A stretch of DNA of 64,000 bases from an uncultured Poribacteria bacterium (GCA_951813545.1 OX638352.1:4736835-4800834); one strand, 5' to 3'; shown: positions 8,145 through 42,882, counted from the first letter of the stretch. Notes: generated by a model not told the origin, from the letters alone. Numbers and translations: made by a program.

Positions 8145-8169
8145 ACAATAGATATAGATTTTCCTGAAT

Positions 8170-9435: not shown

Positions 9436-9466
9436 AGACTGTGGTGCGCGGAATTGATGAGATGTG

Positions 9467-11597: not shown

Positions 11598-11715
11598 AAA
11601 CTCGTAACAAATCGGAGACACGCGGCGCACGTCTATTTTCGTGTATTGTGGTGTTTCCGCTTAGAAACTTCAGAAGAAGGACAACGTAATCCTTCTTCTC
11701 CCTTACATTATAGCG

Positions 11716-13116: not shown

Positions 13117-13149
13117 GCACCAATCTCAACCAAGAACGGAGGTTAAATT

Positions 13150-14556: not shown

Positions 14557-14574
14557 TCATGTGAACATTTTGCG

Positions 14575-14608
14575 GTTGGCGCGCTTGCAAGGCGCGCCAA
14601 CTTGTATT
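14575..14608 (+). terminator. Rho-independent terminator after 13150..14556
   Basis: Perfect 10-bp stem GTTGGCGCGC / GCGCGCCAAC with a 7-nt loop, followed by TTGTATT. Confidence 0.55.
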
Positions 14609-14622
14609 AAAGATAACCGAAC

Positions 14623-15039
14623 ATGTCCACCGAGTACCGAACCAAGCGTAGAATCGAGTTTACTGATACCGATATGGCAGGTATCGTCCATTTTACGCGA
14701 TTTTTTGTCTTTATGGAGACTGCGGAGCATGAATTCCTCCGCAGTTTAGGGACGAGCGTTGCCACCGAATGGAACGGCGATAAAATCGGATGGCCCCGAC
14801 TTGCTGCCTCTTGCGAATATTTAAGCCCGCTCCGGTTTGAAGACGAGGTGGATATTCATCTTGTGGTCTCCAAAAAAGGGACGAAATCGCTTACCTATCA
14901 ATTCCACTTCACACATCACGGAGAGGACATCGCACGTGGGCAACTCACAACAGTCTGTTGTGTGACAAATCCGGGTGAAAAACTACGTGCAATTCCTATC
15001 CCCGATTTCATTGCTAACCAGATACACTGTTCACCGTAG
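14623..15039 (+). CDS. Acyl-CoA thioesterase, hotdog fold (YbgC/FadM 4HBT family)
   Basis: 138 aa. N-terminal IEFTDTDMAGIVHFTRFFVFME, typical of 4HBT thioesterases. Confidence 0.8.
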   Translation: MSTEYRTKRRIEFTDTDMAGIVHFTRFFVFMETAEHEFLRSLGTSVATEWNGDKIGWPRLAASCEYLSPLRFEDEVDIHLVVSKKGTKSLTYQFHFTHHGEDIARGQLTTVCCVTNPGEKLRAIPIPDFIANQIHCSP

Positions 15040-15080
15040 ATGAGCCTTCCCACCTCACCTCACAGGAGATTACGAAGATC

Positions 15081-15776
15081 ATGAGACAATCGCTTACTGG
15101 CACTTTCTCGCTTAAAGTATCCAATCTATCTAAAGACTTCGGGACAGTTCAGGTATTACGAGATATTTCATTTGACTTCACAGACGATGTATCTGTCGCT
15201 ATCACCGGTCCCTCCGGCTCCGGTAAAAGTACACTTTTACATATCATTGGCACTTTAGAGAAACCCTCTAACGGACAGGTTAGGATTAACAACACGGATC
15301 CGTTTGCGCTTTCTGAACCTGAATTGGCACGATATCGGAATTCCGTGATAGGGTTTGTGTTTCAGGACCATCACTTGCTCCCGCAATATTCCGTGCTTGA
15401 AAATGTCCTCGTGCCTACACTCGCCTTTAAACAGGAACCTGACGCTACCGAACGGGCGCATGAACTCCTTGATCGGGTCGGGCTTACGGATCGTATATGG
15501 CATCGACCTGCTGAGCTTTCAGGTGGCGAACGGCAACGCGTCGCTATCGCGCGTGCACTTATCAACCAACCGGATATTCTCCTTTGCGATGAGCCGACAG
15601 GTAACCTCGATACTGCTACTACTGAAACTATCGCCAACCTGCTCTTTGAACTACATCAAGCCGAAAAAAACATATTGATTGTCGTTACACATAATCTTAC
15701 GCTCGCTTTGCGTTTTCAGGAACACCTCCAGCTTGTGGAAGGCAGGTGCAGCATCGAGGGCAATTCCGAATCGTAA
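15081..15776 (+). CDS. ABC transporter ATP-binding protein (LolD/MacB-type)
   Basis: Walker [10 protein letters not shown]. Signature [15 protein letters not shown]. Walker [13 protein letters not shown]. Confidence 0.85.
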
Positions 15777-15864
15777 TGTGAAAAAGAGTATTAAAGAGAT
15801 ATTAGCAAACCGATAAAGGAGGTTTGCGGTCTGAACCAAAGAGCGTTTAGAACCAATTTTTTCA

Positions 15865-27342: not shown

Positions 27343-28428
27343 CTAAATTTCCGGCACTCTCACCGCAACCTCTTTTCCAGTCTCATGCGAACGGAATATG
27401 CCTTCCATAATTACATTTGTGAGAAGTACACCTTCGGGAGGTATCGGCGATGGTGCATCTGCCTTAACGGCTTCACGGAACGCGGTCATCTGTGCTTCCC
27501 AGACATTGACCGCTGGGAATCCTGAGAACCGGATCGTCGTCATTCCATCCGGCGGGTTCGGCTCTGCTGTCAATCCTTCCGATTTAACCAGTTTCTTGAG
27601 GTCATCCGTATAGGCATCGGCATAGACGACTGGTCCATCCAAGGAGATACCCATTTCTTTACCGAGACAGAAACTGGGACCGAGCGAATCCTGATGAATC
27701 GCCCAAGAGATTTTGAACACCATCACGCCACCGTCTTCAAACCGCACCCACGCGACACCGAACTCTTCAACATCCATAATCCCTCGAAATTGTGGATCTT
27801 GCTGCGAGATGTAGTCTTCAGTAATAGCAGAGACACGCACGGGTTTTGGATACCCCATCGCATACAGCGAGTTGTGCATATTGTAGACACCGATGTCTAC
27901 AATCGCACCAGCGCCCGCCGTCTTTTTGTAGATGAACGTGCGTCCCGGATTTCCACGCCGTCTGCCACCTGAAGACTCGGAGTAGTAGATGTCGCCGAGC
28001 AGTCCTTCATCGATTACCTTCTTCGCAAATTGGAGTCCCGGATTAAACGTGCTGTGGATACCGATCTGCAGGATTTTGCCCGACGCTTTTGCTGCCCGGA
28101 CCATCGCGGTCGCATCTGGGAGCGTCGCTGCCATCGGTTTCTCACAGAAGACATGTTTGCCAGCATTCAACGCTGCCACTGTCGGTCGCCGGTGTCCTTG
28201 GTTGTAAGTACAAACACTCACCGTGTCGATTTCGTCCATCTCAAGCATCTTGTTGTAACTGGTGAAGACGTGCTTTCTCGGTACACCCCACTGATCGGCG
28301 GCTTCGTTTGCCTTGCTTTTGATGATGTCGCAGACTGCAACGATCTCGAAACCGCCTACTGCCGTGTAAGATCGCTGGTGCGCCCGTGAGATACCGCCTG
28401 TACCCACAATACCGACTCGAATCGTCAT
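27343..28428 (-). CDS. Gfo/Idh/MocA-family oxidoreductase, tandem paralog
   Basis: 361 aa, co-linear with 26209..27294 and about 80-85% identical by eye. It carries the same motifs. Confidence 0.85.
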   Translation of the reverse strand: MTIRVGIVGTGGISRAHQRSYTAVGGFEIVAVCDIIKSKANEAADQWGVPRKHVFTSYNKMLEMDEIDTVSVCTYNQGHRRPTVAALNAGKHVFCEKPMAATLPDATAMVRAAKASGKILQIGIHSTFNPGLQFAKKVIDEGLLGDIYYSESSGGRRRGNPGRTFIYKKTAGAGAIVDIGVYNMHNSLYAMGYPKPVRVSAITEDYISQQDPQFRGIMDVEEFGVAWVRFEDGGVMVFKISWAIHQDSLGPSFCLGKEMGISLDGPVVYADAYTDDLKKLVKSEGLTAEPNPPDGMTTIRFSGFPAVNVWEAQMTAFREAVKADAPSPIPPEGVLLTNVIMEGIFRSHETGKEVAVRVPEI

Positions 28429-28556
28429 GTTACTATCTCCTCATGTGTAGAATAGAATTGCTATACGAGTTTAGACGAAATCGGTTTGTAATGCAAGGGG
28501 AAAATGTGATATACTTCAAGGTACATATTCTATATGCTGACAGAAAGGAGAACATC

Positions 28557-29276
28557 GTGAGTATTGATACAGATAAAAGACGACTTTCACAAGTACAGAC
28601 CCCACAAAATATGCGCGGCAATCTGAGCCCGGAACATATATTTAATCAGCTTTATGATGATTTACAAAACGCGAGTCAAGCACAACTGGGTTGGCAGTGG
28701 TTGTTACCATTGCGTTCTGCTGACGTACATCATTTACAATCCTTGGGAATCCCTGCTACTAACGCACAGCAAGATTTTGATGGTTTGGTGCTAAGCCTTG
28801 CCAAGATACTCATTGATTCTCTGAATGAAGAGTCACTGAAAAAGTTGATTCCTTGTGAGAAATGGGAAGCATTTAAAGATAAAAGAGGCATTGCCCTGCT
28901 TGAAGCTGCCTTATCTTTGAATGAACTTAAAGGTGCTGATGTTCACGTTGCCTTTCTACGGAAACTCCAGAGTTTTCGCGCAAGTGGGAGTGTTCATCAG
29001 AAAGAACACAACTATTTAAAAGTCGCTAAGTATTTTGACTTTGGAAGCCAGAGTCCACGGAATGTTTTTGCCAATATACTAAACAGTGCCTCAGATACAC
29101 TGGATTACTTCATTGCTCTTGTAAATAGTGGACGCATACGTGACATTTTTGAAAAGAACCAAATAGCGATCGGATATGCTGGTTTTAGCGATATGATTGG
29201 TATTGCAGATTTTGGCACATCTGATGCCTCTGTCAACCACGACGAAGCCATCTACGAATTACAATCGAAATCATGA
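28557..29276 (+). CDS. Hypothetical protein, upstream partner of the PIN-domain gene
   Basis: Start refined to GTG 28557, preceded by an AAAGGAG RBS. The ORF-track start at 28386 would overlap the divergent gene. Its stop overlaps the PIN gene start (ATGA). No recognisable domain. Confidence 0.45.
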   Translation: MSIDTDKRRLSQVQTPQNMRGNLSPEHIFNQLYDDLQNASQAQLGWQWLLPLRSADVHHLQSLGIPATNAQQDFDGLVLSLAKILIDSLNEESLKKLIPCEKWEAFKDKRGIALLEAALSLNELKGADVHVAFLRKLQSFRASGSVHQKEHNYLKVAKYFDFGSQSPRNVFANILNSASDTLDYFIALVNSGRIRDIFEKNQIAIGYAGFSDMIGIADFGTSDASVNHDEAIYELQSKS

Positions 29277-29683
29277 TTTTTGTTGATACTGGTGGTTGGA
29301 TCGCTATTTTAAATAGGAGAGATCAACACCATCAAGAAGCTGTGGCGATATTCAACAAACTGCAACAGCAGCACATGCGTCTCCTAACTACAGATTATGT
29401 AATTGATGAAACCGTTACTCGTCTCAGATACGACACTAACCACTCACTGGCAGTCATGTTCTTAAACCGTATCGAACTACTTGTGGAAACAGGTGTTTTA
29501 ATCATTGCAGAAATTGATAAGGACATGTTTGAGAAAGCAATAGCACTTTTTCGTCAGTATGACTCGGCACGGTTATCTTTTACGGATTGCACAAGTTTTG
29601 TAGTGTGTCACGAGAATAACATCCGCGAGGCTTTTGCATTTGATCAGCATTTCCCAATAATGGGAATTAACTTGCGCCGATAA
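29273..29683 (+). CDS. PIN-domain ribonuclease (VapC-like toxin)
   Basis: 136 aa. MIFVDTGGWIAI places the first acidic residue. TDYVIDETVT and SFTDCTSF supply further conserved D/E/D residues. Confidence 0.7.
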   Translation: MIFVDTGGWIAILNRRDQHHQEAVAIFNKLQQQHMRLLTTDYVIDETVTRLRYDTNHSLAVMFLNRIELLVETGVLIIAEIDKDMFEKAIALFRQYDSARLSFTDCTSFVVCHENNIREAFAFDQHFPIMGINLRR

Positions 29684-29817
29684 TCTGCCTCGCTTCCCAT
29701 TATCACTTCACCAGTTATTCTATTTTCTTTTAAATTAAACCTAAATTTTGGATAATTTTGGCGATATTTATGTGGTCTTCTCATGCATATCTTGTGAACC
29801 ATTGGAATCATGCCAGA

Positions 29818-30771
29818 CTATCGCCTCAAAATTTCCTCACGATGCCATGCCAAAGCATCTTGAGCAGGATAGAATTCGTCGTGCTCCGGCAGTAGTATCG
29901 GCTTATCGCGCAAGGTCGTTAGCGTCCACTCTGTAGGTCCACGCTCCAACATAAGTTCTGAAACAATAACCTTGTAGTTTCTATCGACGGAAATTAAGCC
30001 TCTATCAAAAGACCAGTGATGCAGTTGACAAAGGGAAATCCCATTCCGCACATCGTTATTTCCTGAAACCTTGAACGGAATGATATGGGCAGCTTCAGTT
30101 ATACTTTCGCCGTCCAGTGTTAGAACATACAATTGACAAACTGCACAGGTATAGTTGTAGATTCTCATGATTGCTCGGCGGAAACCAGCAGTCCGAATTG
30201 GCTTTTCTGTTTTGATTTGTGCCAACGGTTGTAAGGATGAAAATGTGTGTTTAACTTGCCGTAGTAGTGAACGTCTGTACTTATCAATCTGTTGTTTTTC
30301 AGTTATTAGGCTTTCAATTACTTGCTTAAAATCTGCGAAATAGGTATTGACAAGGGTTTGACGGATTACCTCTCTATCATGAGTATCAGTAAGTAAAAGA
30401 AATAATTCATCATCAAAACTCGCGTACGCAATCACCTCACGAATACGAGAAGCCGTTTTAAGTTGAGATGCAACGCCTAATGCTGTTTCATATCCAGGGT
30501 TTGGGTGGAGATGCCAGAATCCTTCGCTCTTTAAATGGAAAAATGGCATGGCAATATTAGGTTTCCTATCCGTTAGCTTAGACCAATATTTCAGAAAAGC
30601 CTCCGCCAACTCCGGGGAAAGGACTATTTTATTTTCGGGAATCTGTCCTTGTTCAATGCGTTCAATAACTGCTAACAGCAGGAGAGGTTTATTAGGTGCT
30701 GCGCCACGTGCTCTATCTATTCGCAATTTCTCCATCTTTCGGATATATTTTTGGAGGATGTTGGTAGACAT
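29818..30771 (-). CDS. HNH endonuclease with an uncharacterised N-terminal domain (candidate restriction/defence nuclease)
   Basis: C-terminal HNH motif HIIPFKVSGNNDVRNGISLCQLHHWSFD. The N-terminal ~200 aa (APNKPLLLLAVIERIEQG ... SEGFWHLHP) were not assigned to a family. Confidence 0.65.
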   Translation of the reverse strand: MSTNILQKYIRKMEKLRIDRARGAAPNKPLLLLAVIERIEQGQIPENKIVLSPELAEAFLKYWSKLTDRKPNIAMPFFHLKSEGFWHLHPNPGYETALGVASQLKTASRIREVIAYASFDDELFLLLTDTHDREVIRQTLVNTYFADFKQVIESLITEKQQIDKYRRSLLRQVKHTFSSLQPLAQIKTEKPIRTAGFRRAIMRIYNYTCAVCQLYVLTLDGESITEAAHIIPFKVSGNNDVRNGISLCQLHHWSFDRGLISVDRNYKVIVSELMLERGPTEWTLTTLRDKPILLPEHDEFYPAQDALAWHREEILRR

Positions 30772-30950
30772 TTTTTTTCGTGATACCCTCTGGTGTTTGG
30801 CAGAGAAATTTCGTAAAAATTAACTGTTCTCTAATACAGAATTTTATCATATATCACGAAAAAGTCAATTTTTGTTTGAAGAAGTAAGATAGACGGTATT
30901 AACCGATGCCCACAGGCAAAACGAAGTTCTATAATCCAGTTAAGTTTTTC

Positions 30951-30979
30951 TTGACATTTCTGTTTAACCGTGTTATGCT
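30951..30979 (+). promoter_or_regulatory. Sigma70-like promoter upstream of the FGE/CCP cluster
   Basis: TTGACA (30951..30956), a 17-bp spacer, then TATGCT (30974..30979). It lies about 70 bp upstream of the ATG at 31047. Confidence 0.45.
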
Positions 30980-31046
30980 GAATCAGACGATGCAGGTTAG
31001 ATAACATTACAATCGATTTGAAATTGCAGGCGAGGAGGAAAGGAAA

Positions 31047-31844
31047 ATGAAAAGGGTATTTTGTTTTGCTTGTGCCTTGGTGCTAATTTTCACAGGGCAC
31101 ACATTTGGACAGGATGTCGCTGTTTTTTATGACGCAGCGGTTGAAAATGGTGGCGGCTTAGCCGTTCCGAACCCGAAGCAGTTAGCAGAAATGATGGTAG
31201 AGGAGCTTGAGGCAAAAAAACTAACTGCTGAAATTGTGGATAGCGACGAGTTAGCGGAGTATATGAAGGCGAACCCCAAGGGTATCTATATCATCACGCA
31301 AGGGAATACCCCTGGCACGATATTTAAAAAAGAAGGCAAGAAAGACCTTGTTTATACATGGCTAAGAGAAGGCGGGATCGGCGGATTCATCGGCGATTAC
31401 GCGTTCTACTATTATTGGGATAAGGGAGCGCGTGTTACTGCTGCCGGTGCCGGGCAACAAAGCGTGTTTGGTGCTACAATCACAAACGGCACAGTCTCGC
31501 AAGTCAGCCCAACGGATCTTGGGAAGGAGCTCATCCCTTCTCTCAAGAAGTGGAGTTCAAATCGCGCATCAGGTCTTGCTGTTTTGAAGCAAAACGATTT
31601 TGAGTATGAAAGTTATGCCGATGACGGTGTAAACGCAGATCCAATCGCTTACCGCACAAAAGACATGGAGGGATGGTTTATCAACTTCCATACTTCATGT
31701 TGTGGAACAGTCATACCACCGAATGATCAGATCGCTACCGAGTACGCAGAACTGATTTCAAATCGTTTTGCAACTGCAAAAGCAGTAGATCCAACTGGTA
31801 AAGTGAGTGTCGTCTGGGGACGGCTCAAAAAATCACGACAGTAG
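31047..31844 (+). CDS. Secreted protein of unknown family, paralog 1 of 3
   Basis: Signal peptide MKRVFCFACALVLIFTGHTFGQ. Shares VA(I/V)F, (E/Y)GG, DY(I/A)FY and C-terminal D-P-x-G-K-x-x-V-x-W-G-x-(L/I)-K motifs with 35391..36197 and 36303..37124. Confidence 0.5.
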   Translation: MKRVFCFACALVLIFTGHTFGQDVAVFYDAAVENGGGLAVPNPKQLAEMMVEELEAKKLTAEIVDSDELAEYMKANPKGIYIITQGNTPGTIFKKEGKKDLVYTWLREGGIGGFIGDYAFYYYWDKGARVTAAGAGQQSVFGATITNGTVSQVSPTDLGKELIPSLKKWSSNRASGLAVLKQNDFEYESYADDGVNADPIAYRTKDMEGWFINFHTSCCGTVIPPNDQIATEYAELISNRFATAKAVDPTGKVSVVWGRLKKSRQ

Positions 31845-31969
31845 CACCTCGTCATTGGAACTATTTGTTAACCTGTAGCCCCAATCCCCATATTGGGGCT
31901 ACAACCAATTTGTACCGACAGAAACTGTGATGACGGAATACCGACCGTTGACAGTTTAGACCATACACC

Positions 31970-32839
31970 ATGCCACGAAAAATTATGTTCCTCCCACTAT
32001 TAACTAACTTTGGTATCAAAGCAACAGTGAAACATTGCGCCATCTTATGTTTCTTTATTGGCTTAAGCGTTAACCTGACTTCATGCGGTGACGATGAGAG
32101 TCCAGAGGAGCTGACGGATTCGCAAACATCTCTGGAGGCTTCCGACACCCGAATTGATGTTGAAGAGATGGTTTTGATTCCAGCAGGAGAGGTTCGGCTC
32201 GGCACGGATAGCAAGACCAACTTGACGTTCGGAACAGAAGCCGACCTTCGGACAGTTTTTGTCGCAGCGTTCCACATCGATAAATATGAGGTTACAAACA
32301 AACAGTACGCAAAATTCCTCTTGGAGACTGGACATCGGAAACCGAAGTTCTGGGATGATCCAAGGTTGAACACTCCAGATCAACCGGTTGTGGGAGTCAA
32401 TTGGGAAGACGCTGAGGCTTACGCTGTATGGGCTGGCAAACGGCTACCTACCGCGAGTGAATGGGAGAAGGCGGCGCGTGGTATAGATGGTAGACTTTAT
32501 CCGTGGGGAAATGATTATGATGCGACGCGCGGCAATTTCGACGATGGTGGAAGGATGGACGGTAGCACGGATGGCTATGCAATGACTTCTGCACCTATCG
32601 GGAATTTTATAGAGGGTATAAGTCCGTATGGACTCCATGATATGGCAGGAAATGTTTGGGAATGGATAATGGAAGACCCAGGACAGTCGAAAGCGACAGA
32701 TGAGAAAACCTATGCAATTCGTGGGGGATCATGGACGAACGGCGCGGGGGATACACGAACAACGGTCGCTTATATCTACCCAGCACAATGTAGCGATCAT
32801 AGCAGTTCCGTTGGATTCCGTTGTGCAAGGACACCTTAA
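31970..32839 (+). CDS. Formylglycine-generating enzyme (FGE/SUMF1) family protein, lipoprotein
   Basis: GVNWEDAEAYAVWAGKRLPTASEWEKAARG and RGGSW motifs. N-terminal signal with Cys (NLTSCGDD). Confidence 0.8.
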   Translation: MPRKIMFLPLLTNFGIKATVKHCAILCFFIGLSVNLTSCGDDESPEELTDSQTSLEASDTRIDVEEMVLIPAGEVRLGTDSKTNLTFGTEADLRTVFVAAFHIDKYEVTNKQYAKFLLETGHRKPKFWDDPRLNTPDQPVVGVNWEDAEAYAVWAGKRLPTASEWEKAARGIDGRLYPWGNDYDATRGNFDDGGRMDGSTDGYAMTSAPIGNFIEGISPYGLHDMAGNVWEWIMEDPGQSKATDEKTYAIRGGSWTNGAGDTRTTVAYIYPAQCSDHSSSVGFRCARTP

Positions 32840-32948
32840 ACCTCTGATGCAATCTTTCATAGTAGTAGACGCACGCTGCGTGCACTAACAGAGCAATTAA
32901 AAATCGACGAATGTGGTTACTGAACTGAATTCCTAAAAGATAACACTT

Positions 32949-33857
32949 ATGCGAGATACATTGAAATCCGTAATCTGTTTCCTGATGTTGTTAGGCGTGA
33001 TCCTGATGGGTTGTGGCAGTGATGAACAGATGCTGGTTGAAGAAGAAACGGAAGAAATTCAAATCATTGAGATGCCAGTGGTAGAAGTCGTACCTGAACC
33101 GATACCGATAGACGTACCAGCAGGTATGGTATACGTCCCCACTGGGGAATTTATCATGGGCAGCGATCCGGATGTTGATCCAATGACGGATGCGCTCGAT
33201 GAACTCCCGCAGCACAAGGTGTTTTTGGATGCCTATTTTATTGATAAACATGAAGTGTCGAACGCCGACTACACCAAATTTGTTGAAGCCACCGGACACC
33301 GGAATTCAATCTTCTGGGATAACCCGAAGTTTAATCACCCTGACCAGCCGGTTGTGGGTGTGACCTGGGGCGATGCAGCCGCTTATGCAGCGTGGGTTGG
33401 GAAACGCCTGCCTACTGAAGCGGAATGGGAGAAGGCAGCACGCGGCACCGACGCACGCATTTGGCCCTGGGGCAATGAATTCGATCCGACGAAATGCAAC
33501 TTCGATGATGAGGGAAAATTTGACGGACATCTTGACGGTTTTGCGATGGCAGCACCGGTAGAGAGTTTCGAGGGGGGTGCGAGTCCGTATGGTGCATTCA
33601 ACATGGCAGGGAATGTCGCAGAATGGGTTGCAGATTGGTTTGACGCAGAATACTACGCTGTCAGTCCTGCGGAAAACCCGAAAGGTCCTCCAACGAGTGG
33701 GATGGGGAAAAAATCGTGGCGGGGTGCAAGTTGGTTCGCCGGTCCAGATCAGATGCGGTGTGCATTCCGAGAATATGACGACATTGTCGCGAGTGGACAG
33801 ATAATCGGATTTCGGTGCGCGAAAGATGCGATGCAAGATGCACCGAGAGTCGAGTGA
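32949..33857 (+). CDS. Formylglycine-generating enzyme (FGE/SUMF1) family protein, lipoprotein, tandem paralog
   Basis: GVTWGDAAAYAAWVGKRLPTEAEWEKAARG and WRGASW motifs. Lipobox LMGCGSD. Confidence 0.8.
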   Translation: MRDTLKSVICFLMLLGVILMGCGSDEQMLVEEETEEIQIIEMPVVEVVPEPIPIDVPAGMVYVPTGEFIMGSDPDVDPMTDALDELPQHKVFLDAYFIDKHEVSNADYTKFVEATGHRNSIFWDNPKFNHPDQPVVGVTWGDAAAYAAWVGKRLPTEAEWEKAARGTDARIWPWGNEFDPTKCNFDDEGKFDGHLDGFAMAAPVESFEGGASPYGAFNMAGNVAEWVADWFDAEYYAVSPAENPKGPPTSGMGKKSWRGASWFAGPDQMRCAFREYDDIVASGQIIGFRCAKDAMQDAPRVE

Positions 33858-33896
33858 ACCAACCAGCCCCTTAGCCAGCCGACCTAAATCGAGAAC

Positions 33897-35186
33897 TTGA
33901 CTTTACAATTTGGGAATATTAATTTGATGATGCGTTTCATAACGATTTGGATAATATCCAGCTGCGCGTTATTGCTCTTCGGGTGCGGTGAGGAAGAACT
34001 TCCAGAAATGACAGCGATGCCTGAAGAAAAGGATGATATATTCACGGAACGCGAGTGGGCGGTTATTCAACGTTTATCTCCGCTGCCTGACACACCACCG
34101 CCTAACCCTACGAATCGTGTTGCCGATAATCCAGATGCCGCTCGGTTAGGGCAAATGTTTTTCTTCGACGAGCGATTTTCAAAGGACGGAACGGTTGCTT
34201 GTGCAACATGCCATTCACCATTTCATGGGTTCGCTGATGTTGAGGCGACTTCATTGGGCGCGGGGAGAGGAACGAGAAACGCACCAACACTGCTCAATGC
34301 TGCCTATAACAAATGGCAGTTTTGGGACGGTCGCGCAGATACACTGTGGTCGCAAGCACTAAGTGCGCTTGAAGGTGAGGTGGAACAAGCCGGCACAAGA
34401 CTCCAGTATGCACATCTCATCAATAAGCACTATGAAGTCGATTATGAAACCGTATTCGGTGCACTTCCGGATCTTGAGGATGCAACACGTTTCCCACTTG
34501 ATGGAAAACCGGGAGACTCAGATTTCGATAACATGTCCGAAGCGGACCGGCGAGCGGTTAACACCGTCTTTGCAAATATCGGTAAGGCAATTGAGGCTTA
34601 CGAACGTCTCTTGATTAGCCGGAATGCACCGTTTGACCGGTATGTAGCAGGCGAGGCAGAGGCGATCACACTTGAAGCGAAGCGTGGGTTAAAAACATTC
34701 ATCGGTAAAGGTGTTTGTATCCTCTGTCACGATACGCCAACTTTTACAGACAACGATTTCCATAATTTGGGTATCCCGCAAGGTGCGTTGCCAGAGGACA
34801 CTGGGCGTTATGCCGGAATCTCTTTGCTCTTAGCAGATCCGTTTAACGGTGGCGGCATCTATAGTGATAATACCGCAGTTCCTACACGGATTTTAAACTT
34901 TTTGGAGCCAATACCGCAACATCAAGGTGAGTTCAAGACACCAACGCTTCGTAATGTGGCACTAACGGCACCCTACTTTCATACGGGTGAATTTCCGACG
35001 CTCGAATCCGTTATTGAATTCAATAATGTCGGTGGCACGGGTGGTAATTTTGCCGGTAGACGAGAAGGGACACTGGAACCGCTTCATCTCAATCAACAGG
35101 AAAAAGAAGATTTGGTCGAGTTTTTAGAAACATTGACAGGCGAATTACCGTCTACCCATTTGTTAAGGAAGCCCGCTCTGCCATAG
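33897..35186 (+). CDS. Di-haem cytochrome c peroxidase (CCP/MauG family)
   Basis: Two CxxCH haem-binding motifs (CATCHSP, CILCHDT). N-terminal signal with Cys. Conserved CCP block PTLRNVALTAPYFHTGEFPTLE. Confidence 0.85.
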   Translation: MTLQFGNINLMMRFITIWIISSCALLLFGCGEEELPEMTAMPEEKDDIFTEREWAVIQRLSPLPDTPPPNPTNRVADNPDAARLGQMFFFDERFSKDGTVACATCHSPFHGFADVEATSLGAGRGTRNAPTLLNAAYNKWQFWDGRADTLWSQALSALEGEVEQAGTRLQYAHLINKHYEVDYETVFGALPDLEDATRFPLDGKPGDSDFDNMSEADRRAVNTVFANIGKAIEAYERLLISRNAPFDRYVAGEAEAITLEAKRGLKTFIGKGVCILCHDTPTFTDNDFHNLGIPQGALPEDTGRYAGISLLLADPFNGGGIYSDNTAVPTRILNFLEPIPQHQGEFKTPTLRNVALTAPYFHTGEFPTLESVIEFNNVGGTGGNFAGRREGTLEPLHLNQQEKEDLVEFLETLTGELPSTHLLRKPALP

Positions 35187-35390
35187 ACACAATCAGGAAC
35201 GTGATTCTGAAACTTAGGGCTGCTGGGGAAATAAATTAATTTGACTTCAATTAAGGAATCGGGTATAATAACTGAGTTAGGGATATAGACAATTCTTCGT
35301 TTTTTGGAAAAATTATGGAATTCAGTCTGTGAATGCTCTAATAGTATGAGACGAGAGCATTCACTTTGCCGATTAACAAGAGGAAATTAC

Positions 35391-36197
35391 GTGAAAAAAT
35401 TGATAATCATTGCCATGTTTATAATGTGCTACTTCGCTTTGCCGAGCATCGGTATATCTGCTCCGATGGGAGAGGTGGCAATCTTTACAGAGCAAGCCGG
35501 ATGGATGGGGCAGCCTACTGCCGTTGAGGAAGGGAAGGAAATGCTAAACATGCTCAAAACCCCGGCGGATGTTGTGGTATTAACCGATAAAGAGATTGGC
35601 AAATGGGCAGAGGACCACACCGATAATGGCGTTTCTGATATTATCGTAACATTCGGTTGGTTCCCGACAACCTTATATACCCCCGGTAATGTTGATCCTG
35701 ACGGTTCAATCGCTGAAGAATTCCTTGAAGGCGGAAATGTTTTCCTTAATACTGCGGATTATATTTTCTACGTCACACAAGGCGGCGGTGCCAACGGTGA
35801 ACAGGGCTTGAAGAATATGATGGATATCAACGCCGATATGTGGTCCGATGGTACAGCTATCAAACCCACTAATGATGGTAAGAAGTATACCCCTACCCTT
35901 AAAGCCTTTACCTCAGCGCGGACTTTCAAGGAAAAACAGATTGTTGATCCTTGGGAAGTTGAGGTAGTTTTTGGTGATAATGGGGCAGGATTCTTGGATC
36001 CCGCGATTGTCCATGATACCGAAACCGACGGTCGTATCGGAATTGCCTATCAAGTACCAGGTGACGATGGGCTCCCACGGGGCGAACTTTTCACCGAAAT
36101 GATTGATAACTACCTGTTTGAAGTGCTCGGTCCCCAATCAGTTGACCCAAATCAAAAGGTTGCTACGACCTGGGGACATCTTAAATCAAGTTTTTAA
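35391..36197 (+). CDS. Secreted protein of unknown family, paralog 2 of 3
   Basis: Start refined to GTG 35391, after an AAGAGGA RBS. Signal peptide KKLIIIAMFIMCYFALPSIGISA. Long stretches shared with 36303..37124 (FGWFPTTLYTPGN, ADYIFYVT(Q/E)GGGANGE, NADMW(S/G)DGTAI, KYTPTL). Confidence 0.5.
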   Translation: MKKLIIIAMFIMCYFALPSIGISAPMGEVAIFTEQAGWMGQPTAVEEGKEMLNMLKTPADVVVLTDKEIGKWAEDHTDNGVSDIIVTFGWFPTTLYTPGNVDPDGSIAEEFLEGGNVFLNTADYIFYVTQGGGANGEQGLKNMMDINADMWSDGTAIKPTNDGKKYTPTLKAFTSARTFKEKQIVDPWEVEVVFGDNGAGFLDPAIVHDTETDGRIGIAYQVPGDDGLPRGELFTEMIDNYLFEVLGPQSVDPNQKVATTWGHLKSSF

Positions 36198-36302
36198 CCC
36201 ACTATTGTTGGAAACCACTATAGTAACTCAGGTTCTATAACCTATTGCTCCAGCAATATCTTTAGTATAGTTGGAGCAAACTCAAAAAGAAAGGAAAAAC
36301 TA

Positions 36303-37124
36303 ATGACACGCAGTGTATTAACACTATTTGTAGTTCTGTTAATGGTTACATGTACTATTTCAAGTTGGGCTTTAGGTGATGTCGCTATCTTCAGCGAAAA
36401 TACTGGCTGGATTTCCAAAGAAAACGCGGATATTCAACGCGCTATAGTCTTTGACAACCTTAAAGGCACTGTTGGTTCCGTTGGTGACATTGTTTATGCA
36501 ACCGATGCAGAAATCGGGCCGTGGGCAGAAGAACGCATTGATGACGGCAAGGCAGATATCCTCATCATTTTTGGTTGGTTCCCAACAACCCTCTATACCC
36601 CGGGAAACTCGCAGGTAGATGACTCCATCGCCGAACGATTCCTCTACGGTGGAAATATCATCCTCAATTGCGCCGATTATATCTTCTACGTTACTGAAGG
36701 TGGTGGTGCTAATGGTGAAAACGGTTTGAAGACCATCATCAACATCAACGCCGATATGTGGGGCGACGGGACAGCGATTACGCCGACAGCCGATGGCGAA
36801 AAGTATACGCCAACACTTGAAGCGTATACTTCCAATAGACCTTTCAAAAGTGAACAGATCGTTGATCCCTGGAGCGTTGAAGCCGCTTTCGGTGATAACG
36901 GTGCTGGATTCTTTGACCCTGGTATTATCAAATTGAACGATAGTAGCGGACGGGTCGGTATCTGCATGCAAGAAGGAAATAACGGTGAATTGCCACGCGG
37001 ACAGATACTTATCGAAATGATTGATTTCATTTCACAACAACCTGATGTGGCTGGTGCGACGACACCTGTTGAACCAACTGGGAAAGCAGCTGTTATTTGG
37101 GGCAATATCAAAGCCACACGTTAG
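36303..37124 (+). CDS. Secreted protein of unknown family, paralog 3 of 3
   Basis: Signal peptide. About 55-60% identical by eye to paralog 2. Conserved C-terminus VIWGNIKATR. Confidence 0.5.
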   Translation: MTRSVLTLFVVLLMVTCTISSWALGDVAIFSENTGWISKENADIQRAIVFDNLKGTVGSVGDIVYATDAEIGPWAEERIDDGKADILIIFGWFPTTLYTPGNSQVDDSIAERFLYGGNIILNCADYIFYVTEGGGANGENGLKTIININADMWGDGTAITPTADGEKYTPTLEAYTSNRPFKSEQIVDPWSVEAAFGDNGAGFFDPGIIKLNDSSGRVGICMQEGNNGELPRGQILIEMIDFISQQPDVAGATTPVEPTGKAAVIWGNIKATR

Positions 37125-37963: not shown

Positions 37964-39270
37964 AGCAGCTTACATGTTTATTTATTGCCCTATTTGCTAT
38001 AGCAGTCGTGCAGGCGCAATTCGCAAGTGCCGATGAATGGCACCAGTGGCGTGGTGAAAACCGGGAAGGCGTTTGGAACGAAACAGGTATCATCGAAAAA
38101 TTTGAAGGTGAGGAGATTCCACTTCGGTGGCGCGTTCCTATCGGAAGTGGCTATAGCGGACCGAGTGTTGCTGATGGACGCGTGTACGTCACAGACAGGC
38201 TCACAAAGCCAAAACAGGTTGAACGCGTTCACTGCTTCGATTGGGAAACAGGCGAATCACTCTGGTCTTACACCTACGATTGTGTCTATAAAATAGACTA
38301 TACAGCGGGACCGCGTGCAAATGTTACCATTCATGATGGACTCGCTTACGCTTTAGGGTCGATGGGACATCTACACTGTTTCGATGCCGTTACTGGAGAC
38401 ATCATCTGGAAAAGAGATCTCAATGCCGAATATAACATTAATATGCCGATTTGGGGCATCGCGTGCGCACCTATTGTTGAGGGTGAAAACCTGATCGTTC
38501 AAATCGGCGGAAAGCCGAACGCTTGTATCGTTGCATTTGATCGGAAAACGGGTGAGGAGAAGTGGAAAGCGTTAGACGACAACGCCTCTTATTCGGCACC
38601 GATTGTCATTACGCAAGCGGGTGAACGCGTCTTAATTTGCTGGACGGGTGCTAACATCACCGGACTTAATCCGCAAACTGGAAAAGTACACTGGCTTTAT
38701 CCGTTTCCACCGGAAAGTTTTGAGATCGCTATTGCGACACCTATTTTCAATCAGAATGAATTGTTTGTCACAGAATTCCGTCAAGGATCTCTTCTCCTGA
38801 AGCTGCCACCGGATAAGTTGGCTGCAGAACTCGGCTGGCACCGTAAGGGAAAAAACGAACAGAATACCGACGCCCTTCAGACGACAATGGCGACACCTGT
38901 CCGTTTGGGGGATTACATCTATGGGGTGGATAGTTATGGAGAACTCCGCTGTTTAGATGCAGGAAACGGGGATCGGATTTGGGAAGACCTCACCGCTGTG
39001 CGGAAAGCACGCTGGAGCAATATCCATTTCGTCAGTCATCCAGTGGCATCGGATAACAGAGTATGGATGTTTAACGAACATGGCGAACTTCTCATCACGG
39101 AACTCTCTCCCGACGGACTAAATATTATCAGTCGCGCCAAACTAATCGAACCGACGCGCGACCAATTGAACCGAAGGGGCGGCGTTACGTGGGCGCATCC
39201 TGCGTTTGCCTATAAGCACGTCTTCGCACGAAACGACAAAGAACTCGTTTGTGCCAATTTAGAAAAATAG
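37960..39270 (+). CDS. PQQ-like beta-propeller repeat protein (BamB-like fold), secreted
   Basis: Signal peptide. WHQWRGENREGVWNE N-terminus and repeated hydrophobic-W/G-x-D propeller blades. Confidence 0.7.
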   Translation: MKQLTCLFIALFAIAVVQAQFASADEWHQWRGENREGVWNETGIIEKFEGEEIPLRWRVPIGSGYSGPSVADGRVYVTDRLTKPKQVERVHCFDWETGESLWSYTYDCVYKIDYTAGPRANVTIHDGLAYALGSMGHLHCFDAVTGDIIWKRDLNAEYNINMPIWGIACAPIVEGENLIVQIGGKPNACIVAFDRKTGEEKWKALDDNASYSAPIVITQAGERVLICWTGANITGLNPQTGKVHWLYPFPPESFEIAIATPIFNQNELFVTEFRQGSLLLKLPPDKLAAELGWHRKGKNEQNTDALQTTMATPVRLGDYIYGVDSYGELRCLDAGNGDRIWEDLTAVRKARWSNIHFVSHPVASDNRVWMFNEHGELLITELSPDGLNIISRAKLIEPTRDQLNRRGGVTWAHPAFAYKHVFARNDKELVCANLEK

Positions 39271-39888
39271 TGGGTTTCTTCTTTTTAGCCAAAGATCGAG
39301 AGCCTGAAACGAAGTGAAAGGGTTTTTGCTTGGGGGTTTCTTCAGATCTACGTAAAAGAATGTTAAATCCCAAACTATACTAACCGAACCACAAGGAATA
39401 ATTAAGAATAGCGGGTTTCTTTTTTTTACCCAAAGATCGTGAGCCTGAAACGAAGTGGAGGGCGGATCTACGTAAAAGAACGTTAAATCCCAAACCATAC
39501 TAACCGAACCGCAAGGAACAATTAAGAATAGCGGGTTTCTTCTTTTTAGCCAAAGATCGCGAGCCTGAAACGAAGTGGAGGGCGGATCTACGTAAAAGAA
39601 CGTTAAATCCCAAACCATACTAACCGAACCGCAAGGAACAATTAAGAATAGCGGGTTTCTTCTTTTTAGCCAAAGATCGCGAGCCTGAAACGAAGTGGAG
39701 GGCGGATCTACGTAAAAGAACGTTAAATCCCAAACCATACTAACCGAACCGCAAGGAATAATTAAGAATAGCGGGTTTCTTCTTTTTAGCCAAAGATCGC
39801 GAGCCTGAAACGAAGTGGAGGGCGGATCTACGTAAAAGAACGTTAAATCCCAAACTATACTAACCGAACCGCAAGGAATAATTAAAAT
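39269..39888. repeat. Tandem repeat, 5 units of ~120 bp (first unit 141 bp), filling the whole PQQ-M16 intergenic region
   Basis: Unit AGCGGGTTTCTTCTTTTTAGCCAAAGATCGCGAGCCTGAAACGAAGTGGAGGGCGGATCTACGTAAAAGAACGTTAAATCCCAAACCATACTAACCGAACCGCAAGGAACAATTAAGAAT. Unit boundaries at 39410, 39530, 39650 and 39770. Units 3 and 4 are identical. The array ends 1 nt before the ATG at 39889. Confidence 0.9.
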
Positions 39889-42882
39889 ATGGAAACAACT
39901 CGGACACCAGAGGTAAACTTACGTCCCGGCGAACAACTTCACGGCTTTGAGGTGAAAGCCGTTACACCGATCGACGAATTGCGAGCAGTGACAATTGAAT
40001 TGGCACACCAACATAGCGGTGCCCGCCTGCTACATCTCTATACAAACGATACGGAAAATCTCTTCTCCATTAATTTCCCGACCCCGCCATCAGACGATAC
40101 CGGCGTACCCCATATTCTTGAACATGCTGTTTTGGCAGGCTCACACAAATTTCCGGTTAAAGAGCCCTTCTTTGAAATGATTAAAATGAGCATGGCAACA
40201 TTTATTAACGCCATGACAAGTGCCGATTTTACATGCTATCCGGTATCAAGCAACGTAAAAAAAGACCTTTTCAACTTGGCAGAAGTTTACTTTGACGCGG
40301 TCTTCCATCCACTACTGACCGAAAATACTTTCAAGCGTGAAGGACATCATCTCGCACCCGTCGATCCGGATGACCCTACAGGCGATTTAAAGATAACGGG
40401 TATCGTCTATAATGAGATGAAAGGCGCATTCTCAGATCCTGAAGCTCGGTTATATCGATCAATGACATGTCAACTCCTTCCAGATACGCTTTACGCATGT
40501 GAATCCGGCGGCGATCCAGATGCCATTCCGGATTTGACCTACGCGCAGCTCAAAGGATTTCATGAAACCTATTATCACCCAAGCAACGGCTATTTCGTTC
40601 TGTACGGGGACATTCCGACGAGCGACTATCTCACGTTCCTCGCCGATAAGTTAGATAAAATCCCAAAGAATGCTGCGAGTGCCTCTCTACGACCGCTAAG
40701 CCCGGAGGTCACACACCAACCGAAGTGGGATGCGCCACGGGCTGTAACGGATACCTACCCTGTCGGCGCAGATGAAGCACTCACAGAAAAAACATATATG
40801 ATGCTCAGTTGGTACATCGGAGAAGCGACCAAACCGGAAGCAGTTGTTTTAGGACGCATTTTGAGCCTTATACTGCTTGGCAATGAAGCCGCACCGCTCC
40901 GTAAAGCGATAATCGATTCCAAACTCGGTGCAGACCTCATCTATTCCGGTGCCAGTTCCATCGGACCCGCAGCTACTTTTCACGTTTCCCTCAAAGGGAG
41001 CGAAGTCGATCGCGTTGAAGCCTTCACACAACTCGTCACCGATACCCTAACAGCGATTGCGAATTCAGAGATTAATAACGAAAAGGTGGAAGCAGCGTTC
41101 CAACAAGCGACATACTATTACCAAGAAGTCGCTTCAATGTTCCCGCTCCGCATGCTCTACCGTGTCATTGAAGGCTGGATATATGAAAAAGATTCGGACA
41201 CCTTCCTAAAGATGGGAAAAACGCTGACTGATGTTCGTCAGCAGTGGCTGGAAAATCCATCAATTTTCAACGACTTCATCCGCGAGCATCTCATTGAGAA
41301 TCCACATCGTCTGACAAGTGTGTTGTCTCCTGATCAGGACATGCAGGCGAAAATGGATGCTGAACTCGCCGAACGGATGAAAGAGACACGGACACAACTC
41401 ACTGATGAAGAGGTACGGCAAATCGCCGCTGATGCTGCGGAACTCGAACGCCTCAACGGCGTCCCCAATTCGCCGGAAGCACTCGCAAATCTGCCACAAC
41501 TCCAAGTCAGCGATCTTCCCGATAAACCGAAACATTTTCCGAGAACAGTCGAAAATGTCGGTGGTCGGGATCTGCTCCGCAGCGATGTTTTTGCCAATGG
41601 TGTTAACTACCTTGTGCTCAACTTCAATTTACACGGGTTACCACAGCACCTCTGGACCTATCTACCCAGATATGCTGACGCTATTAGCAAACTCGGTGCC
41701 GCTGATATGAGTTATGAAGAGATGGCACAGCGGACATCTGCCGTCACCGGTGGTATTGGATGCTCACCGTGGTTTTCTACACACACACTCGATGCCAATC
41801 GTTCCATGCAGAGTATATCCTTTCACCTCAAAGCACTCGATGGGAAAATGGATGCCGCGCTCGATGTCTTGCACGATTTACTGTTTGCTGTGAACCCACG
41901 CGATACGGAACGCCTCCGGGACGTACTGGTTCAAGCGGTTGCAGAATATCAGACAGAAATGATCCACGACGGCTCAAGTACTGCGGTTCATCACGCTTCA
42001 CGTGGACTTTCGTCGAATGCGCATCTCGCCGAAATCATCTATGGTCTACCCCAACTCCGCAACAGCGAAACGCTCTTCAACGATTTTGACGAACTTCATA
42101 CCGACCTTATGGGTCATATAGAAGGAGTTCGCGATTTCCTGCTAACCCGTGAACGGGTGACCGCCAGCTTCACCGGTTCGGATACCGCTTTTGAAACGAC
42201 GCGAACCAAACTCGGTGAGTGGCTTGACGCGATGCGGAACGAGCCTGTTATTTCAGAACCGATTGCGTTCCAGCAGTTTGATACACCACCGAGAGAGGGA
42301 TTAGCCGGTCCCATTCAGATTGCGCATTGTGCGCATGTAATGCCGGCACCGCACTACTCCGATCCGGATTCAACGCTGCTGACGATCGGGGCGCATCTCA
42401 TTCGACTGGATTACATACTGAGTGAAATCCGCTTTAAAGGCAACGCTTATGGTGCCAGATTCAGCTATAGTCCTTATGACGCAGTCCTGTGTCAATCCTC
42501 GTATCGCGACCCACACGTCGCACGCACGATCAACGTCTTCGAGCAAACCGTTGATTACGTTAAACAGGTGGAATGGACACAAACAGACATAGACCGCGCG
42601 ATTATTGCTACGGCAAAAGATGGTGAGAAACCGATGCGTCCAGGTTTAGCTGCGAGAGAGGCACTGAGTCAACATCTTGTGGGGCAGACGCGCGAGATGC
42701 GAGAGGAACGCTACGCGCAACTCCGACGTGCCACCCCTGCTGAGGTGAAACGCGCGCTCCTTCAACTTTTAGAGGGAAACCGAGATAAAGCCGCGGTGTG
42801 TGCCGTTTCCAGTCGTGAAAAACTGGAAGCCGCAAACAGTGAATTAGCACAACCGCTTGTCATTGAGGATATTTTATCCTAA
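39889..42882 (+). CDS. M16C-family zinc metallopeptidase (PreP/pitrilysin-like)
   Basis: 997 aa. Inverted zinc motif HILEHAVLAGS (HxxEH) and downstream NEMKG glutamate. Length is typical of M16C. Confidence 0.8.
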   Translation: METTRTPEVNLRPGEQLHGFEVKAVTPIDELRAVTIELAHQHSGARLLHLYTNDTENLFSINFPTPPSDDTGVPHILEHAVLAGSHKFPVKEPFFEMIKMSMATFINAMTSADFTCYPVSSNVKKDLFNLAEVYFDAVFHPLLTENTFKREGHHLAPVDPDDPTGDLKITGIVYNEMKGAFSDPEARLYRSMTCQLLPDTLYACESGGDPDAIPDLTYAQLKGFHETYYHPSNGYFVLYGDIPTSDYLTFLADKLDKIPKNAASASLRPLSPEVTHQPKWDAPRAVTDTYPVGADEALTEKTYMMLSWYIGEATKPEAVVLGRILSLILLGNEAAPLRKAIIDSKLGADLIYSGASSIGPAATFHVSLKGSEVDRVEAFTQLVTDTLTAIANSEINNEKVEAAFQQATYYYQEVASMFPLRMLYRVIEGWIYEKDSDTFLKMGKTLTDVRQQWLENPSIFNDFIREHLIENPHRLTSVLSPDQDMQAKMDAELAERMKETRTQLTDEEVRQIAADAAELERLNGVPNSPEALANLPQLQVSDLPDKPKHFPRTVENVGGRDLLRSDVFANGVNYLVLNFNLHGLPQHLWTYLPRYADAISKLGAADMSYEEMAQRTSAVTGGIGCSPWFSTHTLDANRSMQSISFHLKALDGKMDAALDVLHDLLFAVNPRDTERLRDVLVQAVAEYQTEMIHDGSSTAVHHASRGLSSNAHLAEIIYGLPQLRNSETLFNDFDELHTDLMGHIEGVRDFLLTRERVTASFTGSDTAFETTRTKLGEWLDAMRNEPVISEPIAFQQFDTPPREGLAGPIQIAHCAHVMPAPHYSDPDSTLLTIGAHLIRLDYILSEIRFKGNAYGARFSYSPYDAVLCQSSYRDPHVARTINVFEQTVDYVKQVEWTQTDIDRAIIATAKDGEKPMRPGLAAREALSQHLVGQTREMREERYAQLRRATPAEVKRALLQLLEGNRDKAAVCAVSSREKLEAANSELAQPLVIEDILS

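Follow-up and report, generated by a model that had tools for sequence, protein, structure and literature searches.

We examined a 64-kb stretch of DNA (the window) from a Candidatus Poribacteria genome, in which three genes on the + strand encode paralogous proteins with signal peptides (P1, P2 and P3), each ending in a closely similar tail of about 20 residues, with two FGE-sulfatase-domain genes and a cytochrome c peroxidase (CCP) gene lying between P1 and P2. The features are as follows:

31047..31844 (+), P1, a 265-aa secreted paralog with a signal peptide, a body of predicted class I glutamine-amidotransferase (GATase1)-like fold and the C-terminal tail
31047..31109 (+), P1 signal peptide, MKRVFCFACALVLIFTGHTFG, without a lipobox
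31779..31841 (+), P1 C-terminal tail, KAVDPTGKVSVVWGRLKKSRQ
31970..32839 (+), FGE-sulfatase-domain lipoprotein 1 (lipobox LTSC)
32949..33857 (+), FGE-sulfatase-domain lipoprotein 2 (lipobox LMGC)
33897..35186 (+), di-haem cytochrome c peroxidase, a MauG/MbnH-like lipoprotein (lipobox LFGC)
35391..36197 (+), P2, a 268-aa secreted paralog
36135..36194 (+), P2 C-terminal tail, QSVDPNQKVATTWGHLKSSF
36303..37124 (+), P3, a 273-aa secreted paralog
37062..37121 (+), P3 C-terminal tail, TPVEPTGKAAVIWGNIKATR

The three ORFs described in the earlier note, which had reported a three-member family of secreted proteins of about 265 aa with a conserved C-terminus, were all recovered, and its observation is confirmed. 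P2 starts with GTG at 35391 behind a GAGGA-like ribosome-binding site, although a mechanical ORF list extends it to a TTG at 35304. By BLASTP, P2 and P3 are 51% identical (E = 4e-89), slightly below the 55-60% estimated by eye in the note, while P1 is more diverged, with 24% identity to P2 over the full length (E = 4e-10) and 29% to P3 over 122 aa (E = 5e-9). The blocks V-A-x-F, G-G and D-Y-x-F-Y and the tail are invariant in the three-way alignment, whereas NADMW.DGTAI, which the note had listed among the shared blocks, is common only to P2 and P3. All three N-termini, read from the sequence, are signal-peptide-like and lack a lipobox (MKRVFCFACALVLIFTGHTFG, (M)KKLIIIAMFIMCYFALPSIGISAP and MTRSVLTLFVVLLMVTCTISSWAL, respectively). 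P1 orthologs are 56-95% identical, the named ones belonging to Candidatus Poribacteria.

The three proteins end in KVSVVWGRLKKSRQ (P1), KVATTWGHLKSSF (P2) and KAAVIWGNIKATR (P3), each following the pattern V-[DE]-P-x-x-K-x4-W-G-x-[LI]-K-x3/4-stop. In a six-frame scan of the window, [TVIA]WG.[LIVM][KR] occurred only three times, each at the end of one of these ORFs. Of 240 homologs fetched, 228 keep the tail; counting from the tryptophan as position 0, V(-10) and W are invariant, K(-5) is lysine in 225/228 and K(+4) in 227/228, and exactly 3 residues follow in 208. Among the other 12, nine are fragments or frameshifted, two are full-length point variants (W-S and C-G in place of W-G), and one, the ortholog P0048, which is 83% identical to P3 in the body, carries a dockerin plus a type IX secretion system (T9SS)-type C-terminal domain (CTD) in place of the tail.

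The body, about 225 aa, matched no sequence model, with no Pfam hit at E<=1 (including GATase, ThuA and Glyco_hydro_42M), no NCBIfam model and no PDB sequence hit better than E = 0.17, which agrees with the note's inability to place the proteins in a family. It can, however, be placed at the level of predicted fold. AlphaFold models of P1 (pLDDT 88) and P3 (pLDDT 87, pTM 0.84), compared by Foldseek, revealed a flavodoxin-like alpha/beta fold of the class I glutamine-amidotransferase-like superfamily, with P3 closest to ThuA-like 4jqs (E = 2e-5) and P1 matching the GH42 middle domain, TrpG and ThuA. The matches to the two models included 5xb7, a GH42 enzyme (E = 4e-5), and the GATase domains of TrpG and GMP synthase, with TM 0.4-0.5 overall. 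The P1 signal peptide was modelled as a separate N-terminal helix with lower pLDDT. The catalytic Cys-His-Glu triad of the amidotransferases proper is lacking: no Cys or His is invariant in a 70-sequence family alignment, and neither is among the columns conserved at 75% or more in 167 domains. Instead, the body carries its own conserved polar set (S108, E111, D125, T162, R179 and D205 in P3 numbering).

Contrary to the note, the family is not limited to three members but is a broad domain family with 411 representatives at E<=1e-3. The domain recurs one to eight times in large surface proteins next to LamG, discoidin, PA14 and cohesin/dockerin modules, one such cohesin/dockerin protein being P0253. 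Of 147 body-domain representatives, 22 end in a T9SS-type CTD and 18 in the tail described here. We infer from this context that the body is an extracellular glycan- or ligand-handling module and not an amidotransferase.

The tail, in contrast, is a separate module and not a signature of this family, as the note had framed it. We scanned 185,579 species genomes with a DNA pattern for V-x4-K-L-x-T-x-W-G-x-I-K and obtained at least 117 stretches, a lower bound given the strict pattern, which establishes neither per-genome counts nor complete absence from other phyla. By title, 105 are Poribacteria, 10 are unnamed MAGs and 2 carry other labels (stretches L028 and L071), which may or may not be misbinned. 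In 125 of 130 matches a stop follows within 8 codons, and in 77 after exactly 3. These loci hold 166 full-length tagged ORFs, of which 155 have signal-peptide-like N-termini and only 6 belong to the present family. Once the signal peptide and tail were removed, they fell into 23 BLAST clusters with no detectable sequence similarity. Pfam identified Laminin_G_3 in 70 of 149, together with PD40 and Kelch propellers, F5/8 type C (discoidin) and 3-keto-disaccharide hydrolase (DUF1080) domains. At one locus (L002), 16 of about 26 adjacent genes end in the tail, including LamG proteins. Tagged proteins are small (median 264 aa, maximum 420), lack lipoboxes and are often encoded in tandem arrays.

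Across this sample the last ~20 residues follow the consensus [LFT]-[AP]-V-[ED]-P-x-[GDN]-K-L-[AST]-T-T-W-G-x-I-K-x-x-[RYK]-COOH, behind a variable linker. Lysine is almost never replaced by arginine at the two conserved positions (225:1 and 227:1 in the set selected by body homology, and 180:2 at each position in the genome sample), and the final residue is enriched in R, Y and K. The tail is not packed against the body in either AlphaFold model (pLDDT 47-58 in P1 and 52-60 in P3), and conservation is at the peptide rather than the DNA level, with third codon positions scrambled (38% identity at identical residues). That the tail was first seen only on three paralogs in the window could have suggested an integral structural element of the family or a repeated DNA element without modular function, but this reading is refuted by its presence on unrelated folds, its unpacked state, the scrambled third codon positions and the finding that body-domain relatives match only profile positions 1-240 and lack the tail.

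No Pfam or NCBIfam model matched the tail at E<=10, and no paper containing the motif strings was found. Like the T9SS type A CTD (TIGR04183/PF18962/FlgD_ig-like), the tail is C-terminal on Sec-exported cargo, shared by many unrelated cargo families and, as far as the scan reaches, lineage-restricted, and it occupies the position that a T9SS-type CTD takes in relatives of this body domain (P0048 and the 22 representatives above). In P. gingivalis Hbp35 the last 22 residues suffice for secretion (PMC11969387). However, the tail has about 20 residues against 40-100 for CTDs, the shortest being 40-55 aa (PMC11969387), and is not a folded beta-sandwich or beta-sheet domain with motifs B, D and E, while hhalign of its profile against 14 Poribacteria-type CTDs gave a probability of only 0.14%. 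T9SS-type CTDs coexist with the tail in the same genomes on larger proteins (L060 and L122), so it is a second, distinct signal. T9SS-type CTDs have been reported in Poribacteria without T9SS structural genes, none of the machinery (PorK/L/M/N, Sov, PorV and PorU) having been found in Poribacteria single-cell genomes (Kamke et al. 2014; PMC3909097).

The tripartite sorting signals (LPXTG/sortase, PEP-CTERM/exosortase, GlyGly-CTERM/rhombosortase and MYXO-CTERM/myxosortase) are likewise short, lineage-specific C-terminal signatures on many paralogous secreted proteins, found by the same kind of comparative genomics (bioRxiv 10.1101/2023.06.07.544157), but they consist of a signature motif, a transmembrane helix and a basic cluster. 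The tail has no hydrophobic segment (maximum 10-residue hydropathy, median 0.24 and maximum 1.44), and none lies beyond the stop codon, for which all three stop codons are used; NCBIfam, which curates such signals, has no matching model. In a survey of the 117 loci, recurrent untagged neighbors were only abundant metabolic families such as GFO/IDH/MocA, PhyH, TPR and sulfatase, with no candidate receptor or processing enzyme; DUF6785/6784 membrane proteins lie near tagged genes in 8 loci but adjoin them in only 2. Tagged genes often sit co-directionally next to cytoplasmic-type enzymes, which fits a metabolic accessory role but says nothing about localization. Encapsulin cargo-loading and microcompartment encapsulation peptides are also terminal peptides of 10-20 residues behind a flexible linker on unrelated cargo, and the encapsulin motif ...G-S-L-K... 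resembles W-G-x-I-K, but those cargoes are cytoplasmic, whereas 155 of 166 tagged ORFs, like P1-P3, have signal-peptide-like N-termini.

Taken together, the note's interpretation is partly supported: the genes are secreted paralogs and the tail behaves as the tag it had proposed, but as a Poribacteria-wide module on at least 23 clusters. What the analysis shows is the two independent modules of these single-domain proteins, a body without a Pfam or NCBIfam model and a C-terminal tag that ends many small secreted proteins of unrelated folds in Poribacteria; its function is inferred from sequence and predicted structure alone. We consider it somewhat more likely than not that the tag is an undescribed, phylum-specific sorting or anchoring handle. 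In this view, after Sec export one dedicated envelope partner, not yet identified, would read the free C-terminal peptide and sort or tether this repertoire of binding modules and enzymes at the cell envelope or surface. The near-absence of K-to-R replacement, the spacing of three residues to the C-terminus and the bias of the final residue point to specific peptide recognition, possibly followed by processing or covalent chemistry on lysine, rather than unspecific membrane binding. A 20-residue peptide without a transmembrane helix or a folded domain nevertheless has no precedent among curated bacterial sorting signals on Sec substrates, and roles in oligomerization, stability or regulated proteolysis remain possible.

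An alternative, which we regard as unlikely, is a membrane-binding amphipathic helix holding the proteins on a leaflet facing the periplasm without a protein receptor, like the C-terminal anchors of low-molecular-weight penicillin-binding proteins. AlphaFold draws a low-confidence helix over the tail in both models, L(-4), W(0) and I(+3) are spaced i, i+4, i+7 and flanked by lysines in the consensus, and without lipoboxes the tagged proteins have no other anchor. However, the hydrophobic face has only three residues, hydropathy is low, T-T and G are poor helix formers, and the near-invariance of V(-10), P(-8), K, W and G, the preference for K over R and the fixed end go well beyond what unspecific membrane binding needs. 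An assembly or docking peptide is also unlikely, though it overlaps our main explanation and differs only in the nature of the partner: tagged proteins would plug into a shared extracellular scaffold or lattice, as a miniature functional analog of dockerin-cohesin, or co-assemble with each other. The cargo is a diversified repertoire of single-domain binding modules of narrow size, and Poribacteria encode cohesin and dockerin proteins; in dockerin-cohesin docking, likewise, a C-terminal module attaches varied cargo to a common partner. Yet no scaffold gene recurs next to tagged genes, and dockerins are Ca-binding duplicated EF-hand modules of about 60-70 aa, with no match between the tag and PF00404. 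A C-terminal degron or regulatory signal read by a periplasmic C-terminal-processing or PDZ protease, controlling turnover of these proteins rather than their location, is less likely still. The motif is strictly C-terminal, at a fixed distance from the free carboxylate, with the last residue biased to R, Y and K, and PDZ-type readers recognize exactly such ends, but it is hard to see why more than 20 families would keep a 20-residue degron under strong purifying selection across a phylum, and in relatives the same position is taken by secretion or anchor domains, not by degrons.

A more far-reaching reading, possible but tentative, is that Poribacteria have their own unrecognized sorting or surface-anchoring pathway, in which the peptide (...V-E-P-x-G-K-L-A-T-T-W-G-x-I-K-x3) is read by an unknown envelope machine, perhaps with cleavage or covalent attachment through one of the two near-invariant lysines. 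It would operate alongside the orphan T9SS-type CTDs of the phylum and display a large repertoire of lectin-like modules that could mediate contact with the sponge matrix. Poribacteria are dominant, uncultivated sponge symbionts whose means of exporting and displaying proteins are an open question, and this easily searchable tag marks probably tens of secreted proteins per genome, including LamG, propeller, discoidin, DUF1080 and esterase-like proteins and the present GATase1-like family. It thus offers a handle to delimit the surface or exported proteome, allows a search for the cognate receptor or enzyme by phylogenetic profiling, as for exosortases, rhombosortase and myxosortases, and improves annotation through a new short-signal model and a new domain model for the body. 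Should it prove to be a sorting signal without a transmembrane helix or a folded domain, it would widen the known kinds of bacterial sorting signals.

Finally, we examined the link to the FGE-like and CCP genes suggested in the note, which proved only partial. The two FGE proteins match PF03781 (E = 3e-53 and 2e-57) and, among NCBIfam models, score best against GldK/PorK at 101 bits for the first and reach 125 bits against GldK for the second (cutoff, 350), while the peroxidase matches Pfam CCP_MauG (E = 3e-42) and scores 162 bits against MauG and 155 against the MbnH family, both below cutoff. By analogy with MbnH, which modifies a Trp of MbnP, the peroxidase, and perhaps the FGE-like proteins, might modify the invariant Trp or Lys of the tail, but this is very unlikely and already largely refuted for the tag, which occurs on about 190 ORFs at scattered loci without these enzymes; the peroxidase also scores far below the family cutoffs. 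Of five distinct genomic contexts, the full FGE-FGE-CCP block lies directly upstream of P2-P3 in three (the window and loci L001 and L124), is absent in one (L125, which keeps P2-P3 in the same flanks) and is eroded by IS elements in one. P2 orthologs lie directly upstream of P3 orthologs in L001, L124 and L125, whereas P1 orthologs lie elsewhere in other genomes, and an FGE-like gene also adjoins two distant paralogs at locus L114.

We first asked whether the three paralogous genes could be confirmed and found all of them on the forward strand:
31047-31844 (+), P1
35391-36197 (+), P2, with a GTG start behind a GAGGA-like site
36303-37124 (+), P3
The observation in the earlier note therefore held. 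P2 and P3 were 51% identical (E 4e-89), while P1 was 24% identical to P2 over its full length (E 4e-10) and 29% identical to P3 over 122 residues (E 5e-9). Each protein has a hydrophobic N-terminal signal peptide without a lipobox and ends in V-[DE]-P-x-x-K-x4-W-G-x-[LI]-K followed by 3-4 residues and a stop. In a six-frame scan of the window, this tail pattern occurred only three times, always at the end of one of these ORFs. None of the three proteins matched any Pfam or NCBIfam model.

Homolog searches yielded 223 clusters for P3 and 158 for P1, and every named one was Candidatus Poribacteria. Of 240 sequences fetched, 228 kept the tail, with V(-10) and W(0) invariant, lysine at K(-5) in 225 of 228 and at K(+4) in 227 of 228, and exactly three residues after K(+4) in 208. 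Of the other 12, nine were fragments or frameshifted, two were full-length point variants (W-S and C-G in place of W-G) and one, the P3 ortholog P0048, had the tail replaced by other domains. The linker in front of the tail varied in both length and sequence. The earlier note had named a confident hit to a characterised enzyme family, together with loss of the motif in orthologs, as the outcome that would count against its reading, and this combination was not observed.

We next asked whether the tail is a feature of this family. In a JGI metagenome contig (L002, metagenome 3300020074, positions 1-17000), a P1 ortholog sits in a 17-kb array in which 16 of about 26 genes end in the same tail. 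These are consecutive small genes that include Laminin_G_3 (LamG) proteins and proteins with no Pfam domain as well as the P1 ortholog, and the run is interrupted by a STAS-domain gene. We then scanned one genome from each of 185,579 species with a strict DNA pattern for V-x4-K-L-x-T-x-W-G-x-I-K, for which we estimate about 26 chance matches in 596 Gb, assuming uniform base composition. The scan identified at least 117 stretches, and of these 117, 105 are labelled Poribacteria, 10 'uncultured bacterium' MAGs, one Pseudomonadota and one Deltaproteobacteria. For the two with other labels, tblastx against the other loci gave nothing. In the contig labelled Deltaproteobacteria (L071, 2627-3717), a complete tag (VHPRGKLATTWGEIKGSR) is real but lies one reading frame off the end of a 343-aa esterase-like ORF, which is a frameshift or assembly error, and this 3.7-kb contig may be misbinned.

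In 125 of the 130 pattern matches, an in-frame stop followed within 1-8 codons of the final K, and in 77 it followed after exactly three codons. With a relaxed pattern, the 117 loci held 194 tagged ORFs, of which 166 were full length, and 155 of those had signal-peptide-like N-termini. After removal of the signal peptide and tail, these fell into 23 BLAST clusters, with the family found in the window accounting for only 6 members. Pfam identified Laminin_G_3 in 70 of 149 proteins scanned, PD40 propellers in 13, F5/8 type C in 8, Kelch propellers in 5 and 3-keto-disaccharide hydrolase in 5. The consensus is [LFT]-[AP]-V-[ED]-P-x-[GDN]-K-L-[AST]-T-T-W-G-x-I-K-x-x-[RYK] (consensus peptide, LAVEPAGKLATTWGEIKSGR). 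Tagged proteins are small (median, 264 aa; maximum, 420 aa), mostly lack lipoboxes and often lie in tandem arrays. A DNA-level repeat or recombination site was also considered, but third codon positions agreed only 38% of the time at identical amino acids, so selection acts on the peptide and not on a DNA element. A protein search with a padded 42-aa profile of the tail returned only 24 short fragments and was uninformative.

Several readings of the tail could be set aside. It is not part of the predicted fold: in AlphaFold models of P3 (pLDDT 87, pTM 0.84) and P1 (pLDDT 88, pTM 0.84) the body is confident, whereas the last ~25 residues have pLDDT 47-60 and are not packed against it, and distant relatives of the body match only profile positions 1-240. 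It is not a sortase- or exosortase-type tripartite signal, because it contains no hydrophobic segment. Read-through of the stop codon into a hidden transmembrane anchor was likewise rejected, as all three stop codons are used and nothing transmembrane-like lies downstream. Finally, it is neither a T9SS CTD nor the N-terminal part or a derivative of one: no Pfam or NCBIfam model hit it, profile-profile comparison with 14 Poribacteria-type CTDs using hhalign gave 0.14% probability, and it never preceded an NPFNPETW-type CTD. The shortest CTDs described are 40-55 aa (PMC11969387).

Other features speak for a sorting or anchoring handle. Like known C-terminal sorting signals, the tag is modular, strictly C-terminal and, in the loci sampled, found largely on proteins with signal peptides and in one phylum. 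It also occupies the slot used by recognised secretion or anchor modules. For example, P0048, whose body is 83% identical to P3, carries a dockerin plus a T9SS-type CTD instead of the tag. On the contig encoding it (L122, 400-6200), its neighbours are two further proteins with T9SS-type CTDs, a 327-aa WD40 protein and a 993-aa protein, the latter with a faint dockerin hit in Pfam. Among 147 representatives of the body domain, 22 end in a T9SS-type CTD, 18 end in the tag and others end in a Cys-rich C-terminus. Both signals coexist in Poribacteria contigs (L060 and L122), and T9SS-type CTDs but no Por structural genes were previously reported in this phylum by Kamke et al. 2014 (PMC3909097).

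The near-absolute preference for Lys over Arg at two positions, the fixed three-residue end and the R/Y/K bias of the last residue suggest a specific reader of the free C-terminal peptide, possibly with processing or lysine chemistry. This last step, and with it the function of the tag, is inferred. No receptor, enzyme or other sorting machinery emerged from the gene neighbourhoods of the 117 loci (L005-L121), where the recurrent untagged neighbours were GFO/IDH/MocA, PhyH, TPR, FG-GAP/ASPIC, beta-lactamase, SDR, sulfatase and DUF6785/6784, and at least the phyH family is known to be expanded in this phylum (PMC3909097). Tagged genes were often directly adjacent to and co-directional with GFO/IDH/MocA oxidoreductase genes (13 of 30), PhyH genes (12 of 24) and Lar_N genes (5 of 6), which may only reflect the abundance of these families or may point to a metabolic accessory role.

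The interpretation in the earlier note is partly supported: its idea that the tail could be a sorting or recognition tag gains strong comparative support, but the unit of interest changes from a three-member family with its own tail to a Poribacteria-wide C-terminal tag attached to many secreted families, one of which is an unannotated GATase1-like extracellular domain. As far as Pfam (2025 copy), NCBIfam 20.0 and the searchable literature show, the tag is undescribed, and literature searches on the motif, on Poribacteria and LamG and on protein sorting found no description of it. One qualification is that precomputed annotations list PF27344.1, which is absent from the Pfam copy used, for two P1 orthologs (P0179 and P0195), and this entry may model the body, the tag or neither.

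For the body, Foldseek placed both predicted structures in the class I glutamine-amidotransferase-like fold. The best matches were the ThuA-like protein 4jqs (E 2e-5), lin1909, the GH42 middle domain (5xb7, E 4e-5), a domain of beta-1,2-glucosyltransferase, and the TrpG and GMP-synthase GATase domains, with TM scores of 0.4-0.5. There was no conserved Cys or His, and a PDB sequence search with the family profile found nothing. An exhaustive profile search revealed 411 representatives at E<=1e-3, many of them large proteins of up to 4,446 aa with one to eight copies of the domain, joined in those scanned to Laminin_G_3, F5/8 type C, PA14 or cohesin plus dockerin modules. Named examples come from Poribacteria, Sedimentisphaerales and a Promethearchaeota archaeon. 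The domain, which has no model in the Pfam copy used, occurs 8 times in tandem in P0244 (4446 aa, Promethearchaeota archaeon), an Asgard archaeal protein annotated as HYR-domain-containing, and 5 times in P0241 (1729 aa). Across 167 such domains, W36, W74, D85, G91, P94, Y98, D106, S108, E111, G117, N122, D125, T162, G165, P170, R179, W190, D205, P206 and G216 (P3 numbering) were conserved at 75% or more. We read the body as a putative extracellular glycan- or ligand-handling module.

We also examined the genes surrounding the paralogs in the window, which include the following features:
31970-35186, a block of two FGE-sulfatase-domain lipoproteins and a MauG/MbnH-like di-haem peroxidase (CCP) lipoprotein
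28000-32000, a low-GC stretch that contains P1
29273-29683, a PIN-domain gene
29818-30771 (-), an HNH_2 endonuclease gene
39345-39889, a tandem repeat
The FGE and CCP proteins all have lipoboxes and score well below the cutoffs for GldK, MauG and MbnH; their best NCBIfam similarity is to GldK/PorK but far below the cutoff. The block adjoins P2-P3 in three of five distinct genomic contexts, the order FGE-FGE-CCP-P2-P3 recurring in the contexts L001 and L124, and L001 has a second CCP copy upstream. In contrast, L125 keeps P2-P3 between the same flanking genes without the block, and L126 and L127, two assembled copies of one region, have one FGE gene, IS elements and a single P2-like gene. P1 orthologs lie elsewhere. 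The association with FGE and CCP is positional and partial and does not explain the tag, and the possibility that the tail Trp is a substrate of the MauG-like peroxidase was rejected on synteny.

The stretch holding P1, the PIN-domain gene and the HNH endonuclease gene has a GC content of 0.43 against about 0.50 in the flanks, and because P1 orthologs lie in quite different contexts in other genomes, it may be rearranged or acquired. The tandem repeat at 39345-39889 (120 bp × 4.6 copies, 97% matches) lies between the PQQ-like beta-propeller gene and the gene starting at 39889, and produces a spurious repetitive ORF on the minus strand (39259-39738).
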